DNA of 64,000 nt from a virus. Its lineage: Duplodnaviria; Heunggongvirae; Uroviricota; Caudoviricetes. Of this stretch, positions 42,287-63,304 are shown one piece after another. Below the pieces are notes generated by a model. That model saw only the letters and a list, made by a program, of their open reading frames with translations. It was not told where the DNA came from and made no database searches. Numbering within the stretch: position 1 is the stretch's first letter; the number at the start of each line of letters is the position of its first letter. The position numbers and the translations under genes were made by a program. The stretch is taken from the IMG/VR virus record IMGVR_UViG_3300033144_006348. One strand, written 5' to 3'.

Positions 42287-45200
42287 TTAAAAAGTCAATA
42301 CTTCCATGTTTTTCTGTACATCTAATAACGGTTTTAACATCAATTCATATCTATCAACAAATACAAATTTTAGAGTTGCTTTAGTATCTCTTATGAAATA
42401 ATCTGGTAATTTTTCCTCTTCGTCGGGGATTGCTATTACTTGTAACTTTTTCCCTTCTGAAATAAACTTATGATACTTGTTCCTAACATCTTCTGGAGCT
42501 TTCATAATATCAACGCCTGAAACCCAATACATATATGCTCTAGCACCAGGTCTATGACTCATATACATTATTTCATTCCATGCTTCCATAGCCTTAACTC
42601 CCTGTGGAATGAGTTTATAATCTTTCAATGGTCTTCCATATGACACAGGCCTTGCTATGGTTTTACTTCCTTCCTTAATTAATCTGATAAATTCCCCTTC
42701 TTTACTTTGGACAAATTTTAATAGGCCTGATATTAATATCTTTTCAGATTTTAAAATTAACTCTGAAAGTTCAGTTAGAAACTCTTTTGATTTACTTGGG
42801 TAGTCTGATCTTTTAATCTCTACTCCCATATAACTAATTTCGTCCACATCTTCTCCTTCTATATTTATAACACGAATTGCATATCTCTTTTTAGCTAAAA
42901 ATAAGCCTCTTGAAATAACCAACTCATTTTTTAACATCAATCTGTTAAAGTCCATATCTGTATTATGTTTCTTTACAACTTCAATAATTTTATCATTGTT
43001 TAAAAACTCTTTTATTTTAGAACACCAAGAAAGAATATTTTCAACTGTCTTATCTTCTGGAAAATTTTCAAAACAACAAAAAATTGAGTCAGTATCACCG
43101 GTTACAATGTATTCATTACTTCTATCTGGCATTGCCTTTTCAAACATTTCTTGTTTAGTTAGAGGATTTGGTTTTACATATGGTAGTCCTGTACTTAAAT
43201 GCCTCATAAAAGCATCAGCCTCAATGATAGAAGTTTTTAGAGCTTCTTGCCCTGATAGTGTTACTGCAGCAGCTAGAGATGTATCAAAAAATCTGAATGC
43301 TTTATTTGCAACAACTCCATATAAAGTATTAGCTAGCACTTTATAAACTAATTGCCTTGTATAAAAGAATGCTCTTCCATCTTGATCTTTCTTGTCGATT
43401 GCCTCAAACATCTTCTTTTTATATTCTTTTCTGGACTTCATTAAATTATCAACAATTTCTCCAAAAACAGAAAACTCTTTCTTCTGAGGTTTGAAAAAAC
43501 AACCATTAATAGTAAATATTAATTCATCATCTTTTATTTTTTTAAACAGTTGATCCTTAGAAACTTTAACTAATTTATTTTCATACAATGGGTCAATATA
43601 CACTTCAATTTTTTCTGGTAGATTGTCTGGATAATATGTCAATTCATATCCTAAATGAGGATCTTTTGTTTTCATTACATAACTATTTACCCCTATATTG
43701 TATGTAATCATTAAACTTGGATATAGTGAAGCAAAATCAAAGTCTGTGATATGATCATAGATTCCAGGAATTGGTTCAAATACAAATGCTCCTGGATAAT
43801 CTTTCTTTTTAACATGAGGATCAGCATTTTTTGATGCAAGTCCCTTTTTATTCAAGTATGAAACCATCAATGTATCAATTTGTCCGAACGGTGAAGATCC
43901 TGTATCAAAACTTGCATTACAAATAATCCTTAACTCATTCAACAAATTTATATGAGATAATTTATTTTCAAGACTCTCCAAAATTTCAGCATCTCTAATA
44001 TTATACTCTATCGTTGTATTTAACATCTTCCAGTACATTTCGTTAAATTTAAGAGGAAGTTGTATCTTGGTTATTTCTAATTCATGTTGTGCAATAAAAC
44101 CAAGCTTATAGTTCTCCATCTTTGTGAATGTAAAAAATTTATATAAAAACTCTTGATCCAAAATAACACAACCTGGAATATGGCAAATATATTTAGAACC
44201 ATCAATATACACTTCTCCAAAATTTGAAAGTGAATTAGGCGGCATCCCTATTTTATTCATACGGTTATAAATATAGTCCATATCAAAGTTAATGAAGTTC
44301 CACCCACTCATAAAATCTGGATCATCTTTTTTAAAGTCTTTAATAAAAGTATTTAATAACTGTCTTTCATTACTGAATATTTTAATTTCAACTCCTTCTT
44401 GATCTTTAATTGGTTCAGTTTTATTATCAATAACGTAAGTAGTTTTCTTTCCATTTAAAATTGTAGTAATCATATTGATCGGAAACAATGATTTCTTTGG
44501 ACTGGGGAATATAGTTTCTTTTCCAGTATCAACCTCAATATCACAAAACATCACATTATTTTGTGATTTCTGTGGTTCTCCCTCATTAAAGAAATAATAA
44601 TCCATTGTATGTTTCGCTGTAATTTTATAGTCGCCTTCATATGTAATCTTTGGATCTAAACTAAATCTGTCTTTGTATGGAATTGAAATCTGATTCAGGT
44701 CATCATATGGAACTAATTTCCTTGCTTCAACTCCCTCTGGAACTTGATAACATACAAACTCATCACTTTCTTGGTGATAACATTTAAAATTATGTTTGTC
44801 TCTAAAAATATATAAAACTTTACTCTTTTTATTTAAATACTGAACATCTATTAATCTATACTCATCCGTATAAAACTTATCTGGAATCCTGTATCTATGA
44901 ACGCCTTTTCCTAGCGTTTTCCCTTTTACAGTTGCTTTTATATCAATCTTCTTTCCACTAATTAATTCAGCAACCTTTGCTATATCAGCTTCAAATTTTG
45001 GCATCCATAAATTTTTATTTCTATTTACAAACGATGGATGAACTGTCAAGAATAATTTATAATCCTCCCACTCAAAAATCTGTCCGTGGATATTAGTTAT
45101 TCCACTCTTGGCAATTCCAAAAGCAGACATTGGGCTTCCGCCCATCAAAAGAACTAAATCTGGATTGCATACTCGAATCATATTCATACAATTCTCTTTA

Positions 45201-45550
45201 CATCTTTCAATAACATCATCAGTTGGATTTCCTGTAGTTCCATCTGGATTTAATGTCTGACATAAAACAACATTTGTTAAAAGATATTTAATTTTATTCA
45301 ACCCAAACATTTCAAAATATTGACGAAATACTTTTCCCGCAGTTCCTATCAATGGTTGTCCTTTCTTGATTTCATTCTTTCCAGGATTTTCAGCTACAAC
45401 CACAAGAGAAACTTTAGATAAATCATCTTCTGAATTAGTTTCTATCATACAAGAAGGTGTATCTAAAAGAGGACACACTGAACAGTTTGCAAATGATTTT
45501 TTTATTGATTCCAAATATATACCCCTTTCTTTTTGATTGTTTGTTCCCAT
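42287..45550 (-). CDS. Family-B DNA polymerase with 3'-5' exonuclease and an N-terminal family-4 UDG-like domain
   Basis: N-terminus: C..C.L, VVAENPGKNE..GQPLIGTAGKVF and HPSFV, as in UDG family 4. Exo I DIEVDTG. Motif B KVLANTLYGV. Motif C VTGDTDSIF. Confidence 0.75.
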   Translation of the reverse strand: MGTNNQKERGIYLESIKKSFANCSVCPLLDTPSCMIETNSEDDLSKVSLVVVAENPGKNEIKKGQPLIGTAGKVFRQYFEMFGLNKIKYLLTNVVLCQTLNPDGTTGNPTDDVIERCKENCMNMIRVCNPDLVLLMGGSPMSAFGIAKSGITNIHGQIFEWEDYKLFLTVHPSFVNRNKNLWMPKFEADIAKVAELISGKKIDIKATVKGKTLGKGVHRYRIPDKFYTDEYRLIDVQYLNKKSKVLYIFRDKHNFKCYHQESDEFVCYQVPEGVEARKLVPYDDLNQISIPYKDRFSLDPKITYEGDYKITAKHTMDYYFFNEGEPQKSQNNVMFCDIEVDTGKETIFPSPKKSLFPINMITTILNGKKTTYVIDNKTEPIKDQEGVEIKIFSNERQLLNTFIKDFKKDDPDFMSGWNFINFDMDYIYNRMNKIGMPPNSLSNFGEVYIDGSKYICHIPGCVILDQEFLYKFFTFTKMENYKLGFIAQHELEITKIQLPLKFNEMYWKMLNTTIEYNIRDAEILESLENKLSHINLLNELRIICNASFDTGSSPFGQIDTLMVSYLNKKGLASKNADPHVKKKDYPGAFVFEPIPGIYDHITDFDFASLYPSLMITYNIGVNSYVMKTKDPHLGYELTYYPDNLPEKIEVYIDPLYENKLVKVSKDQLFKKIKDDELIFTINGCFFKPQKKEFSVFGEIVDNLMKSRKEYKKKMFEAIDKKDQDGRAFFYTRQLVYKVLANTLYGVVANKAFRFFDTSLAAAVTLSGQEALKTSIIEADAFMRHLSTGLPYVKPNPLTKQEMFEKAMPDRSNEYIVTGDTDSIFCCFENFPEDKTVENILSWCSKIKEFLNNDKIIEVVKKHNTDMDFNRLMLKNELVISRGLFLAKKRYAIRVINIEGEDVDEISYMGVEIKRSDYPSKSKEFLTELSELILKSEKILISGLLKFVQSKEGEFIRLIKEGSKTIARPVSYGRPLKDYKLIPQGVKAMEAWNEIMYMSHRPGARAYMYWVSGVDIMKAPEDVRNKYHKFISEGKKLQVIAIPDEEEKLPDYFIRDTKATLKFVFVDRYELMLKPLLDVQKNMEVLTF

Positions 45551-45581
45551 TTAAAAAAATAATTACTATATATATTAATAA
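45543..45581 (+). promoter_or_regulatory. GTTCCCATTTAAAAA box + 18-nt spacer + TATATATATTAATAA; candidate promoter driving rightward into the GC-rich non-coding segment
   Basis: Near-identical composite to 49522-49560, with the same spacer length. Overlaps the polB start codon on the other strand. Confidence 0.4.
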
Positions 45582-45590
45582 CTGTCATAG

Positions 45591-45982
45591 TCAATTCTTG
45601 TGATTGGCAATTATAGAAACTGCCATGGTTTCTGGGCTTTTAGTTTCACAAGAGATATCTAAGGCCGAATTCGATGCTAGGGATGTACAGCATTGGATTG
45701 CCCGGTCGGGTCTAACTTTTACTCCGGTACATGGCTTAGTTTTCCCAAATTCCATATTTTCCCAAATTCTACTAGTGGCTTTAAGGAGGGCCAAAGACAA
45801 TGTAAAATAATTTTATAGAGGCTGCAAGGAAGTGCGCCAATAGAGCGTTGCGTATTGATCCTCGGTATACCCGAATGCCTGATAGGAGGGGGCAAAAAAG
45901 TCATGAGATTATAAAGCAAAATAATCATTTTAAATAATACAGCCAGAGATACCTTTAGTGGGGAAGCGCTTGGTAGCGTGCC
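45591..45982 (+). ncRNA. Candidate structured non-coding RNA (~390 nt), class unknown
   Basis: GC content far above genome background. Only short mutually overlapping ORFs on both strands. Bracketed by the promoter-like composite motif and a strong terminator. Confidence 0.3.
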
Positions 45983-46033
45983 GAGGGAGAGAAGAGCCGG
46001 TGACGACGGCCATGACTCTCTCCCTCATTTTTT
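45983..46033 (+). terminator. Intrinsic terminator closing the 45.6-46.0 kb non-coding segment
   Basis: Hairpin GAGGGAGAGA-agagccggtgacgacggccatgac-TCTCTCCCTC followed by ATTTTTTC. Confidence 0.55.
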
Positions 46034-46167
46034 CAATGCATGTCTGATCAACGACTGTGTTGGAACTGGTGAGGCATAGAGATATGATTGCCTGATCACT
46101 CTATGCCTCAGCAGTCTCAACAGATTTCATTTTTATAAAATCAACTTTATATGAAAGGAGATACACC

Positions 46168-46806
46168 ATGTCAACAGAGTTAATACCTTTAGCTGAAGCG
46201 GAGAAATTTTTGGGTATGGGTAACCTCCCATACGATAAAGATAGAGTTCATAAAAATTGTGACATTTTAGTAGAATGCGCTACAGAAAATGAGGAAGCTG
46301 AAAAAATTCCTCTTTATTATGACGCGAGATTTATTTGCTTGAATGTTATAGGTGAAGCTCAACTTGTCAAAACGGGACAGTTTCATCTTGAATCTCCGCT
46401 AGCAGATGCCTGTGATCGGTGTAAAGGTGTTGGACGAATGCTAAAGCGGGAAATGAAGGAAATAGAAGTTGGATGTCACGACTGCGGCGGCGAGGGTGGG
46501 ACCAAAGAGGAATGCCCTGCATGTAATGGAACCAGGCGACATGTTAGAAAATTTCCAGGGTTGACAATTTCTGTTAACTGCACTCAATGTGATAATAATG
46601 GAGCGAAGATCGCAAAATGCGAAGTTTGCCGAGGATCTGCTAAGGTTAAAAAATCAATTAGCACAGGCAAATTCGCTTCTTCAAGCCAATGTAAATCATG
46701 TAAAGGAACCGGAAAGAAACCTCCAAAGAAACCAAAACGAATTTTTCATGACGATTTTCAGAGTCAATTGGCCGGTTTTCTTAAAAATGCAGCTAACGTA
46801 AAGTAG
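46168..46806 (+). CDS. DnaJ central-domain-like zinc-finger protein (four CxxCxGxG-type repeats)
   Basis: CDRCKGVGR, CHDCGGEGG, CPACNGTRR, CTQCDNNG, CEVCRGSAK, CKSCKGTGK. Lone plus-strand gene after the ncRNA-like segment. Confidence 0.45.
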   Translation: MSTELIPLAEAEKFLGMGNLPYDKDRVHKNCDILVECATENEEAEKIPLYYDARFICLNVIGEAQLVKTGQFHLESPLADACDRCKGVGRMLKREMKEIEVGCHDCGGEGGTKEECPACNGTRRHVRKFPGLTISVNCTQCDNNGAKIAKCEVCRGSAKVKKSISTGKFASSSQCKSCKGTGKKPPKKPKRIFHDDFQSQLAGFLKNAANVK

Positions 46807-47338: not shown

Positions 47339-48271
47339 TTAAGACTCCTTCATTATTTGTATTATGTTCCTATAGAAATCTTTCATATCCTGCCAACATA
47401 AGATTTCAGGAACTTCTAACTCTCCATTTAAAGCTTTTCTTAACTTTCTAAATAAATCTCTCTTGCTTGTGTACAAATATTCTTTTGGTAATAATTCTGG
47501 ATAAGAACACCTTTTTGGAGCTATTGGAATACAACCATTTAAGACAGCATCAACAATCTGGTAGCCAAAAGTCTCTTCCTGTGCTGTAATAAGAAGAACC
47601 TTTGACTCTGCTAAAAATTCATAATAGTTATGCCATTCTTTTGTTTCTTTTCTAATAATTTTAGAAAACTCAAACTCAACCTCTTGCTCAAGACCTGAAT
47701 CAACTTTTTGAATGGATGGTCTTGAAGCTGAAACTATATCAAATTGCTTACGCATTCCTATATATATTTCTAATGGAGGAATTGGGAGTCTAGTAACAAC
47801 TGTATTATCCCAAAGCTTCTTTTGATGATACTTACTTCCTACAAATATTTTCTTAAAAAATCTAGAGTGAGATGTTTCTACTGGAAATTTTATACATTGA
47901 ACTCCAGCAAAATAATCATATTTATTAACACTTGTAGCATGACAAAATGCAAACATCTTTGGAACTAATTTATGATATAATGCACTACAAAATAAACCAG
48001 GAAAACTTATATCTGCTAAAAATAAAATATCATCTGAAAATATATCCATATTCATATATTCTCTTATTTGCTCAGTTTCAAATTCAATTGCTTCACTTAT
48101 AGGAGCAAACATTGATGCTGTTGCTGCTTTATTTTTCATCTTCTTAAAATATGTTTCTCCAAGAGTTACAACTGTAGCGACCTCTCTAAATTTTTTTTGA
48201 AACTCTGAAATCCACCACTCTTGATATCTCATTGGAGTTGGATACTGAGGTACAAAAATTATCCTTCTCAT
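47339..48271 (-). CDS. Putative GT-B fold glycosyltransferase
   Basis: C-terminal EETFGYQIVDAVLNGCIPIA resembles the GT4/GT1 E-x7-E nucleotide-sugar binding motif. 310 aa. Confidence 0.4.
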   Translation of the reverse strand: MRRIIFVPQYPTPMRYQEWWISEFQKKFREVATVVTLGETYFKKMKNKAATASMFAPISEAIEFETEQIREYMNMDIFSDDILFLADISFPGLFCSALYHKLVPKMFAFCHATSVNKYDYFAGVQCIKFPVETSHSRFFKKIFVGSKYHQKKLWDNTVVTRLPIPPLEIYIGMRKQFDIVSASRPSIQKVDSGLEQEVEFEFSKIIRKETKEWHNYYEFLAESKVLLITAQEETFGYQIVDAVLNGCIPIAPKRCSYPELLPKEYLYTSKRDLFRKLRKALNGELEVPEILCWQDMKDFYRNIIQIMKES

Positions 48272-48570
48272 TAAAATTCTCCCATATGATCTAAAATGCT
48301 CTGTTCAAATAACTCTGGATCAATTTCTGATTCTTTATCCTCTTTCTCCAAATAAGATTTTACTTCGTCAAGCATCTCTCTAACCTTATCTTTGGATAGG
48401 TTGATTTTTAACGCTTCTGTCATTATTGCGGCTATTTCATCTAGTACTAGACTATCAACTCCTCTTTTCAAATCATACTCTGGATTTATAGTCCAGTCTT
48501 CTCCTATCCTTTTCGCAATTAAATTCTCTTCTTCATCAAATAAACACACACCCACTTTTAAATGTTTCAT
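48271..48570 (-). CDS. Hypothetical protein (99 aa), paralog of 48575..48910
   Basis: VGVCLFDEEENLIAKRIGEDW aligns with KLGICFLDMEDNIIAKKVVEANW. Confidence 0.35.
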   Translation of the reverse strand: MKHLKVGVCLFDEEENLIAKRIGEDWTINPEYDLKRGVDSLVLDEIAAIMTEALKINLSKDKVREMLDEVKSYLEKEDKESEIDPELFEQSILDHMGEF

Positions 48571-48574
48571 TTCA

Positions 48575-48910
48575 TTATCCTTTCTCTAGTTCACTTCTAC
48601 ACTCTAGTAACATTTCTCTAATTACATCTGGAGTTGTTTCTAATTTTAAATGTTCCGCTAATATAGTTGCAACTTCTTTCTGAATATCAATATCAAAAAA
48701 TTTGTTCACATCAGTCTCAAGATTGATACTCCAGTTTGCTTCAACTACTTTTTTGGCGATTATATTATCTTCCATGTCTAAAAAACATATTCCTAATTTT
48801 AAAGTTTTCATTTGATCTCCTCTCTTACACTCGTCACATGGATCTCCAATAGCATCACTTCCCATAAATTCTGTCCCACATGATGGACATCTCTGTTTGG
48901 TTGGCATCAT
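48575..48910 (-). CDS. Hypothetical protein with an N-terminal CxxC..CxxC zinc ribbon (111 aa)
   Basis: CPSCGTEF..CDECKRG. The C-terminal part is paralogous to 48271..48570. Confidence 0.35.
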   Translation of the reverse strand: MMPTKQRCPSCGTEFMGSDAIGDPCDECKRGDQMKTLKLGICFLDMEDNIIAKKVVEANWSINLETDVNKFFDIDIQKEVATILAEHLKLETTPDVIREMLLECRSELEKG

Positions 48911-48925
48911 TCTAAAATCCTCCTT

Positions 48926-49465
48926 TTAAAATATCCATTTACAATACCCTTCAAATAATATATATTTTTTATCATATTCCCACAAGCTTTTTTGATTTGG
49001 ATATACATTATTTAACAACTCTTCTTTTTTATCTGGTTCCTGAACTTCATGAATATATGGAGCATTCATATTAGTTGTATAAAAAGTTACATTCATTCCA
49101 GCTCTTGCCAGTTGTTCTCCCATCAGTCCATATTGTCTATGAATTGGATGAATCTCATATATAGGGTCTGGAAAATAAAAAGTAGTGTTTTGATTAATAA
49201 AGGTAGGGGGAACTGTCATAAGAAAGTGTTGCATTTTAACAGAGATGTATTCTTGAATTTTAAGAGCTTCTTCTCTTCTTTTAACATCTGTATTTCCGGA
49301 GTAAATAATAATTAAACTAGATCTTTTCTTCAATACTTCGTAGCAACCAATAATTTCATCATCTGGATGTGGTGCTATTATTACAGTATCGTTTTGAGGT
49401 TGTTTTACTTGCTCTTCATATATGTCATCTTTTTGCACTAATTCTATTATATTATCTTTACTCAT
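48926..49465 (-). CDS. PIG-L/LmbE-family N-acetylglucosaminyl deacetylase-like protein
   Basis: VIIAPHPDDEIIG carries the family hallmark HPDDE. Confidence 0.5.
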   Translation of the reverse strand: MSKDNIIELVQKDDIYEEQVKQPQNDTVIIAPHPDDEIIGCYEVLKKRSSLIIIYSGNTDVKRREEALKIQEYISVKMQHFLMTVPPTFINQNTTFYFPDPIYEIHPIHRQYGLMGEQLARAGMNVTFYTTNMNAPYIHEVQEPDKKEELLNNVYPNQKSLWEYDKKYILFEGYCKWIF

Positions 49466-49486
49466 ACATTACTCCTTTTATATTTA

Positions 49487-49560
49487 TGTTCCCATTCATT
49501 AAAAAAATTACCCATTTATATGTTCCCATTTAAAAATTGATAATCTATATATATTAATAA
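49487..49560 (+). promoter_or_regulatory. Two GTTCCCATT boxes + TATATATATTAATAA; candidate promoter for the 49.57-50.2 kb non-coding RNA / tRNA array
   Basis: Composite motif shared with 45543-45581. Confidence 0.4.
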
Positions 49561-49566
49561 CTAATG

Positions 49567-50143
49567 ATAGAGTGTTTGTTAGTTTTATAATTACTTCGGA
49601 GATGGGATAGCTTTGGGTTGTGATCCCCAAAGTGAACTCCGTGAATTCATAGCCAGGATTATGAGTGGCCAGAGCTTAATCTCTCTAGGTACCACTGTAA
49701 CTGGCCCCTATATTTAATATAGAACAAATTGAAAATTTGTGGGGTTTTGCTCGTTTGTGGAAATAACGAGACCTCCGGATTAGGATGCGTTATATGCCGG
49801 CTTTTAAAAATATGACGGGTTGCTAGTATGGAGGGATGTATAGAAGGAGTACAGGATACAGTCCTGGTATTTCGCGGATACAAAAACTGAGACGGTATGC
49901 TATAGTCAGTTGTGACGTTTGGGCCTCATCGCCGACGGACCACAGACCGAGAAAGACTCCGGTTCGTCCTCCGCCTCCCTGCCGCCGGATACGAAAGCGG
50001 CTATGTGGGAGTGCGTTATCGGCTTCGGCTGGGATTTTTCCCCCGCCAGAATGAAACCGCAATTGGAATAGAATCCGTCCCCCACTTTATTTTAGCAGGT
50101 GACTAAGACTAATTCTCACTGATAGAGTTTTAATTTTCCTGCG
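49567..50143 (+). ncRNA. Candidate structured non-coding RNA (~580 nt), class unknown
   Basis: Locally ~55-60% GC around 49.9-50.06 kb versus ~33% background. Four short mutually overlapping ORFs on both strands. Promoter-like motif upstream, terminator downstream. Confidence 0.3.
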
Positions 50144-50206
50144 AATTGATAGGGATGCTAAGGATGCTGTCAGTGCTAGAGAGCATCCTTCCTATCAATT
50201 TTTTTA
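50144..50206 (+). terminator. Intrinsic terminator closing the 49.57-50.14 kb non-coding segment, upstream of tRNA-Pro
   Basis: Long bulged hairpin AATTGATAGG[gatgct]AAGGATGC...GCATCCTTCCTATCAATT followed by TTTTTTAG. Confidence 0.55.
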
Positions 50207-50303
50207 GTAACTTTAATTTGAGAATGAAACTTATTTTTACAGTTTGTTTCTAGAATCTATCTATTAAAAAGTTTAGAACATATGAAAAATGTAGTTAGTA
50301 TCT

Positions 50304-50381
50304 CGGGGTGTAGCTCAGTCTGAGTAGAGCGCTCGGTTTGGGGCCGAGGTGTCGGAGGTTCGAATCCTCTTACCCCGACCA
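50304..50381 (+). tRNA. tRNA-Pro (anticodon TGG)
   Basis: Hand-folded cloverleaf. Acceptor CGGGGTG/TACCCCG, anticodon loop TTTGGGG, T-loop TTCGAAT, A discriminator, encoded CCA. Confidence 0.8.
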
Positions 50382-50422
50382 TTTTAGAAGTAAACTAAAA
50401 CAGTGAAAGGGAGAATTAGTGA

Positions 50423-53307: not shown

Positions 53308-53399
53308 GCCCCTGTAGCTCAATGGATAAAATTCTTAACAGAAAACAGAGCACCTGAACTGTCAGGTAGACGTTGGTTCGAATCCTGCCGGGGGCACCA
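53308..53399 (+). tRNA. Atypical tRNA-like gene (92 nt): perfect acceptor stem and T-arm, ~20-nt insertion in the D-loop region, non-canonical 6-nt anticodon-region loop AACTGT; identity undetermined, possible pseudo-tRNA
   Basis: Acceptor GCCCCTG/CGGGGGC, A discriminator, encoded CCA, T-loop TTCGAAT. D-region reads GCTCAATGGA[taaaattcttaacagaaaac]AGAGC. Confidence 0.4.
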
Positions 53400-63217: not shown

Positions 63218-63304
63218 GGGAGCGACAACAAATGTGGTAAAGATAGCTGGCTGTAAACCAGTGGCCTGAGTGCTGTGTAGGTTCGATTCCTTCCGCTCCC
63301 ACCA
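63218..63304 (+). tRNA. tRNA-Tyr (anticodon GTA), type II, with a weak D-stem
   Basis: Acceptor GGGAGCG/CGCTCCC (perfect), anticodon stem GCTGG/CCAGT, loop CTGTAAA, T-loop TTCGATT, encoded CCA. D-arm pairing is poor (AACA/AGAT). Confidence 0.6.

Follow-up and report, generated by a model that had tools for sequence, protein, structure and literature searches.

Analysis of the GC-rich region ahead of the tRNA array in a 64,000-nt stretch of tailed-phage DNA (IMG/VR record IMGVR_UViG_3300033144_006348, hereafter the window) revealed a structured RNA core of 347 nt (49739-50085, + strand), which belongs to a family found in uncultured T4-like phages. The members are homologous, their helices covary, two of their hairpin loops carry palindromes, and their loci are syntenic with tRNA arrays. 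Judging from these patterns, it is rather probable that the core is a stand-alone structured non-coding RNA, which self-associates via symmetric kissing loops and is analogous, not homologous, to the phage RNAs ROOL and GOLLD. We infer that the RNA is transcribed, that it oligomerizes and that it may have a role connected with the phage tRNA set or translation; the oligomers would be held together by the loops. The original prediction had regarded a segment of ~640 nt as a structured RNA: the candidate was indeed found to be structured and non-coding, with compensatory covariation and no reading frame kept in 22 homologs, but the conserved core comprises just 347 nt of the segment.

Genomic context of the GC-rich region

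In the window, genes for a major capsid protein of the Gp23 type and a portal of the T4 type occur together with those for a DnaB-like helicase and a family-B DNA polymerase, no DNA match was obtained among 50,697 GenBank phage records, and related contigs reach 223-312 kb; the source is therefore a large-genome, uncultured phage of the T4-like kind. The family-B polymerase (42287-45550, - strand) possesses an N-terminal domain of the uracil-DNA-glycosylase superfamily (Pfam UDG, E = 8e-17), a fusion that is uncommon. The genes divergent from the RNA (47339-49465, - strand) include one for a weak PIG-L-like deacetylase with an HPDDE motif (the immediate neighbor, 179 aa in length, whose PIG-L match is weak) and one for a weak glycosyltransferase, to which proteins of large-genome Xanthomonas, Erwinia and Burkholderia phages are distantly related; together these genes may be part of a sugar-modification module.

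In 200-nt intervals the GC content reaches 0.515 (49800-49999) and 0.56 (49900-50099), against 0.22-0.35 in the flanks, and the RNA core has a GC content of 0.52 versus 0.34 for the whole window. Thus, the region does lie far above the genomic background, as originally described, with values up to 0.56. It is also located directly upstream of the tRNA array, as had been stated: ~100 nt separate it from the first gene of the array, tRNA-Pro(UGG) (50304-50381, + strand), which is called by both Rfam and ARAGORN. The array comprises 11 tRNAs according to ARAGORN and 13 according to Rfam; two tRNA-like genes (53308-53396 and 63218-63301, + strand) are called by Rfam and unreported by ARAGORN. Small ORFs of unknown function lie scattered among the tRNAs.

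Upstream of the core there is a promoter-like composite (49488-49560, + strand), comprising two GTTCCCATT boxes (49488-49496 and 49522-49530) and a -10-like CTATATATATTAATAA element (49545-49560), which is near-identical in the related contigs L164 and L163. The motif occurs in four copies on the + strand of the window (9118, 21734, 45567 and 49546) and recurs in many related contigs, each copy being placed upstream of genes or of the core RNA. This phage-wide repetition agrees with the promoter-like character assigned to the composite in the original prediction, and the composite is predicted to be active as a promoter. In the form tGTTCYYATTT-N15-cTATATATATTAAT the motif is strongly conserved across the phage clade, and it could be of use in mapping the transcription units of these phages, all uncultured. 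One of its copies (45543-45582) directly precedes a second GC-elevated stretch (45580-46130, + strand; GC 0.39-0.54), ~550 nt without a long ORF, located between the PolB gene and an ORF at 46168-46806. In this stretch there are a hairpin that resembles a terminator and has a T run (near 45985-46035) and, further on, a long one (46067-46112). Its Rfam search returned noise alone and its fold z-score is just -1.2; it may be another non-coding RNA.

Transcription of the core would run rightward from the conserved phage promoter through a variable 5' leader (49561-49738, + strand). The leader is conserved between the window and L164, the closest relative of the window RNA, only in its first and last ~35 nt; its segment 49567-49738 is otherwise diverged even from this nearest relative and has an unremarkable fold z-score of -1.39. 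In most other members the gap between the -10-like box and P1, the closing helix of the core, is 10-51 nt, and in L184, L203 and L207 it is 98-126 nt. At the other end, the RNA of the window has an intrinsic terminator to itself (50143-50205, + strand), in which a long bulged hairpin (50143-50198) is followed by U7 ending at 50205, and the transcript would stop there, shortly ahead of the tRNA array. The 130-nt segment with the terminator folds at -42.5 kcal/mol (z = -4.8), in keeping with the strong bulged hairpin and T tract reported originally; a simple consensus scan fails to see it because of the long loop and the bulge. A T run of at least 6 is present within ~120 nt past P1 in about ten other members, readable hairpin and T-run terminators are found in L211, L212, L230, L231 and L208, and in about half of the members the RNA is followed by a T run or a terminator of its own. 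The RNA was assigned to the + strand because of the frequent G-U pairs in its helices and the orientation of the promoter and terminator; fold-energy z-scores (-4.3 for the + strand, -6.8 for the - strand) do not favor it.

Family members and architecture of the core RNA

Searches with single sequences by nhmmer failed to link members of the family to one another. Candidate loci were gathered via the 179-aa PIG-L-like neighbor (41 from IMG/VR and 80 from metagenomes), and shared end motifs were recognized on reading L006 and L002. A scan for the motif ACGG[TA]ATG...A[AT]CCGT then returned a dozen clear homologs, the window included, and a profile search with the 5' domain yielded 22 full-length and 4 truncated members, all in contigs of uncultured T4-like phages. 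Exact-pattern scans of IMG/VR with motifs derived from the window returned nothing or only the already known L002 contig, and a scan for the tRNA-Pro T-arm pattern returned unrelated tRNAs.

All members occupy the same place, divergent from the PIG-L-like gene and at the head of the tRNA array, with one copy per genome. The RNA is present in 21 of the 94 related loci with enough upstream sequence, only where the neighbor protein is at least 50% identical, and L006 differs from the near-identical L037 by its clean presence or absence (~335 nt). The hosts are T4-like phages of sediment and saline metagenomes, and the members are 239-365 nt long. In the window and in most members with downstream sequence the RNA lies between 100 nt and about 1.3 kb upstream of tRNA-Pro, and the order tRNA-Pro(UGG), tRNA-Leu(UAG) follows it in most members with enough sequence on the 3' side, these two genes coming directly past a terminator or past a NAPRTase-like gene. 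Two loci possess shorter GC-rich elements at the same position, which lack defining parts and were not counted as members. The element of L004 (5355-5530, - strand), just before tRNA-Pro, forms two long hairpins (z = -6.3) and shares AAUCCGUC with the family, while lacking the 5' domain. The element of L002 (5650-5806, - strand; ~160 nt), on the same contig as L042 and L176, has the family 5' GGGGUGUUCC, the loop CCAAAACGAUUG and the 3' GGAAUAGAAUCC without the 5' strand of helix P-a, and it may be a decayed or minimal form of the family RNA.

The core is closed by P1 (GUGGGG, 49739-49744, paired with CCCCAC, 50080-50085), a blunt helix that comprises 4-17 bp of differing sequence in the 22 full-length homologs. 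P1 would close two domains, a conserved 5' domain with hairpin P2, the P3 arm and hairpins P4 and P5, and a variable GC-rich 3' domain with the stacked helices P-a, P-b and P-c at its base. The 5' strands of the latter (49891-49914, + strand) comprise P-a GACGG, the internal loop UAUG, P-b CUAU and P-c CAGUUGUG, and the 3' strands (50058-50079, + strand) comprise P-c CGCAAUUG, P-b AUAG, the loop AAU and P-a CCGUC. In an alignment anchored on invariant positions alone, 97.6% of the cells of P1, P-a (RACGG/CCGUY) and P-b are paired, and 11 of the 17 pairs show changes on both sides; none of 500 shuffles paired as well, and slid controls gave 36-52%. Covariation analysis, proposed in the original prediction as a check, thus had a positive outcome for these three helices. 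The variants include GGGG/CCCC to GAGG/CCUC in P1, ACGG/CCGU to AUGG/CCAU and ACAG/CUGU in P-a, and CUAU/AUAG, GUUC/GAAC, CUAC/GUAG and CUAA/UUAG in P-b; P-c is supported by the comparison of the window with L164. The internal loop between P-a and P-b (49896-49899 and 50072-50074), located at the junction of the two domains, is asymmetric and nearly invariant, with UAUG opposite AAU (variants UAGG and AAC), and does not fit a kink-turn.

In the 5' domain the stems of P2, P3a, P4 and P5 are likewise paired in 97.6% of cells, with compensatory changes in 16 of 16 pairs, counts that lean toward the model, as this alignment was built by hand and fitted to it. The equivalents of P2 and P4 are also recovered by RNAalifold from A7, a MAFFT alignment left unedited that comprises 12 other members and not the window; the MAFFT alignment of the P3 arm is too noisy. 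Median partition-function pair probabilities across the family are 0.80 for P2, 0.94 for P3a, 0.91 for P4 and 0.35 for P5. In the window, P2 (49749-49772, + strand; GCUCGUU/AACGAGAC), which covaries in the hand-built alignment, has a pair probability of 0.82 and is also recovered by RNAalifold on the pair of the window and L164. The P3 arm (49772-49834, + strand) ends in an apical stem (CGUUAUAU, 49788-49795, with AUAUGACG, 49810-49817) of probability 1.00, whose loop is unpaired with a probability of 0.99, and an equivalent arm is present in all members. P4 (49852-49866, + strand; CAGG-AUACAGU-CCUG), the hairpin recovered from A7, has the stem variants CAGA/UCUG, AUGG/CCAU, AAGG/CCUU and GGAG/CUCC. 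The stem of P5 (49867-49881, + strand; GUAU-UUCGCGG-AUAC) covaries in the hand-built alignment; this hairpin is short and thermodynamically weak, and in the window, where it is in competition with an extended P4, its probability is 0.00.

The branched interior of the 3' domain (49915-50057, + strand) is variable and GC-rich, with a hairpin GACGGACC/GGUUCGUC at 49934-49968 and the motif GGAUUUUUCC at 50032-50041. Measured from just past the P-a internal loop to just before AAUCCGU, the domain spans 89-193 nt. As a whole it cannot be aligned across the subtypes, and several of its helices are backed by the comparison of the window with L164; no motif is universal in this domain among the members, UUUUCC being present in 9 of 21.

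With Rfam 15 the window yielded tRNAs alone at the gathering score, the region 49300-50400 noise alone at E<=10, and five other members no family match at E<=5. The Rfam search suggested with the original prediction therefore identified no known family, and the earlier failure to recognize tmRNA, RNase P or 6S RNA by eye agrees with both Rfam 15 and ARAGORN. Specifically, the Rfam models of RNase P RNA, 6S RNA and group I introns do not match; for tmRNA, ARAGORN reports tRNAs alone in the window and the members, Rfam has no tmRNA hit, and P1 is blunt, without NCCA. A by-eye resemblance to RNase P P4/CR-V and to the 5' end of tmRNA was rejected, given no model match, the blunt P1 and the wrong pairing register. 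Searches of GenBank phage DNA with the window element and three other subtypes gave no match, and neither did representative bacterial and archaeal genomes beyond chance; a family 19-mer compared with the genomes of 185,579 species gave 11 chance matches, at which the family profile fails beyond the 19-mer. The full-text literature search returned no description of the family; overlap with a catalogue of 10,006 candidate IMG/VR RNAs (PMC10690425) lay outside the comparison. We rate the RNA as a new family, matching no Rfam 15 model, among the ornate phage RNAs at tRNA islands.

Self-complementary loops and their interpretation

Two hairpin loops of the 5' domain show a feature absent from the original prediction, namely self-complementarity. 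The loop at the apex of the P3 arm, KL1 (49796-49809, + strand; GCCGGCUUUUAAAA), comprises the self-complementary GCCGGC followed by UUUUAAAA. All 22 distinct KL1 loops of the family contain a self-complementary 6-8-mer, in the form of at least 10 different palindromes, including GCCGGC (in the window and L164), GGCGCGCC, GGAGCUCC, GGCGCC, GCGCGC, GGAUCC, GGUACC, UGCGCA, GUGCAC and GUCGAC. Even close relatives differ by symmetric double changes, e.g. GGAUCC in L174 versus GGUACC in L169. The self-duplex of GCCGGC has an energy of -11.7 kcal/mol. The second loop, KL2 in P5 (49871-49877, + strand), contains CGCG, or UCGCGG with G-U pairs allowed; 17 of the 18 distinct KL2 loops possess a palindrome of at least 4 nt and 11 of the 18 one of at least 6 nt, that of the window being only CGCG.

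Palindromes were tested in the loops only, with other loops as controls. Fisher p-values are 1e-12 for KL1 and 6e-8 for KL2 against uniform random loops, and 7e-8 and 5e-4, respectively, against shuffles of the same letters; the relatedness of the sequences makes these values overstate independence, and hand parsing of the loops makes the counts lean toward the model, so that the number of distinct palindromes (about 10) is the fairer measure for KL1. The control loops of P2 and P4 have p about 1, and the P4 loop is non-palindromic. A region-wide shuffle test of the largest palindrome gives p = 0.2-0.7 per sequence. In addition, the type-B members (L173, L184, L175, L178, L174, L172 and L169) carry an 8-nt palindrome, GAUAUAUC, at the junction of P2 and P3, which is neutral with respect to a third self-pairing site because it is invariant.

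KL1 and, less strictly, KL2 thus match the pattern of a symmetric kissing-loop motif, an unpaired loop with a run of at least 4-6 nt that varies and stays palindromic. The KL1 palindrome is found once per RNA in nearly all members and therefore lacks an intramolecular partner; since neighbors within a loop cannot pair with each other and there is no second copy, the sole Watson-Crick partner available is the same loop of another copy of the RNA. KL1 would expose its self-complementary sequence, KL2 probably likewise, and the RNA would act in trans as a homodimer formed through KL1. If KL2 were also used, the two orthogonal symmetric kissing loops could build a closed higher-order assembly; two self-complementary loops would permit two-contact dimers, closed rings, cages of dihedral symmetry, or chains. 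Four other explanations were considered, each of which is less well supported than self-association.

A genuine non-coding RNA of a new family could instead work as a monomer or with a protein, its palindromes being a symmetric protein site or part of an alternative fold. The structure and the family are solid under this explanation too, oligomerization is predicted from sequence alone, and KL2 is weak in the window. However, a protein site would hold the sequence constant, whereas here just self-complementarity is kept (at least 10 variants), and the palindrome has no partner within the molecule, so we find a monomeric or protein-bound RNA unlikely.

We regard as improbable that the RNA is a cis-acting leader of the tRNA array or of the NAPRTase-like gene, i.e. 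an attenuator, a riboswitch or a processing platform. Its position is always behind a promoter and ahead of the first gene downstream, L173, L184, L175, L178, L172 and L006 have no terminator there, the RNA continuing directly into a ribosome-binding site and a gene, and about 7 members lack a terminator before the NAPRTase-like gene, so that a cis role is conceivable in these. Yet in the window, L181, L211, L212, L230, L231, L174, L169 and L208 the RNA is succeeded by a T run or a strong terminator, which makes it a separate transcription unit in these members. The gene next downstream also varies, being a tRNA, the NAPRTase-like gene or small ORFs, the ribosome-binding site is located well past the end of P1, related phages without the RNA are otherwise unchanged, and no Rfam riboswitch model matches. 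A riboswitch or cis-leader class was rejected on the variable neighbor and on the terminators or T runs of about half of the members.

A DNA-level element, either an insertion of the MITE type, bounded by terminal inverted repeats, or a cluster of palindromic sites for protein binding or restriction, has a very low probability. It would account for the presence/absence polymorphism and the inverted repeats at the ends of L006 (a perfect core of 13 bp, about 17 bp with one bulged base), any 6-bp palindrome is a potential type II restriction site, and the minus strand folds well too. Against it stand the single copy per genome at a constant locus, the many G-U pairs, which equal A-C on the opposite strand or in DNA, the conservation of unpaired motifs, and the promoter and terminator that flank the element in the RNA sense. 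As to one or more small encoded proteins, which we consider next to impossible, the short ORFs that overlap on both strands do exist (five were counted, of 50-79 aa, at 49823-50106, and none exceeds 79 aa), but stop-free segments occur in all frames of both strands, as expected of GC-rich DNA, and a conserved coding frame, the finding that would have spoken against the original non-coding assignment, was sought among the 22 homologs and not found, the translated matches being spread over all frames of both strands with a shifting frame.

Comparison with known RNAs

Among stable RNAs of phages, the core RNA resembles species 1 and 2 of T4 (rnaC and rnaD; 119-139 nt, at the 3' end of the tRNA cluster according to the annotation of AF158101) in being located beside a T4-type tRNA cluster, the function of the T4 RNAs being unknown. 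Unlike rnaC, it has no tRNA-like T arm, and a search of the T4 tRNA region with the profile of the family 5' domain (nhmmer, E<=10) returned nothing, so rnaC and rnaD are unrelated to it. The pRNA of phi29 is a phage RNA that forms a ring via intermolecular loop-loop pairing, for which it uses two different, mutually complementary loops, and it binds the portal. In the new RNA the loops are self-complementary, and its core, which heads the tRNA array, is ~17 kb away from the portal gene.

With respect to the loop itself, the dimerization of HIV-1 through the DIS kissing loop relies on a self-complementary hairpin loop of the same type. The similarity extends to L9.3 of OLE, a hairpin loop with a GC-rich self-complementary tetramer or hexamer, often with flanking unpaired purines, which varies and stays palindromic. 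These molecules and their contexts are unrelated to the new RNA, which has up to two such loops. The same palindrome logic was applied to OLE L9.3 and GOLLD L21a by Kretsch et al. (2025), and cryo-EM showed intermolecular kissing loops (PMC12286853); in the D7 14-mer of GOLLD, an intermolecular kissing bridge is made by L21a, a loop that covaries between palindromes (PMC12286853). As the new family shows, scanning hairpin loops for covarying palindromes could serve as a screen for RNA quaternary structure.

The closest analogs are ROOL and GOLLD, which phages encode at tRNA islands and which assemble into large RNA-only cages of D4 and D7 symmetry, respectively; by cryo-EM, the nanocage of ROOL is held in part by symmetric kissing loops (PMC12286853). 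Like them, the new RNA is phage-encoded and adjoins a tRNA island. It shares with GOLLD, a phage and prophage RNA near tRNA arrays, the division into a conserved and a variable half; it differs in size (about 350 nt versus about 800 nt), its conserved half is the 5' one, and the GOLLD covariance model (RF01998) matches neither the window nor five members. With ROOL it has in common the phage origin, a length of several hundred nt, a high GC content, an ornate structure, a frequent position beside tRNA islands and no known protein partner. It differs from ROOL in architecture and in being shorter (239-365 nt), its assembly is predicted from sequence alone, and the ROOL model (RF03087) finds no match in the window at the gathering score or E<=10, nor in five members at E<=5.

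The function of ROOL and GOLLD is unknown, and the new family, independent of them and about half their size, occupies comparable loci in another phage lineage and bears a very clear evolutionary mark of self-pairing loops. We tentatively suggest, as a possibility that we hold to be less than even, that next to these two it represents a third class of phage RNA, unrelated in structure, whose members would assemble themselves into a closed multimer (a ring or cage) via two orthogonal symmetric kissing loops. Assembly, if confirmed, would argue for a functional, not an accidental, association of self-assembling RNAs with tRNA islands. If there is a third class, RNA-only assemblies beside tRNA islands would have evolved repeatedly and would serve one shared purpose, be it in phage translation or in counter-defence, and the new RNA, provided that it does assemble, would offer a smaller and simpler system than ROOL or GOLLD for cryo-EM and mutational tests.
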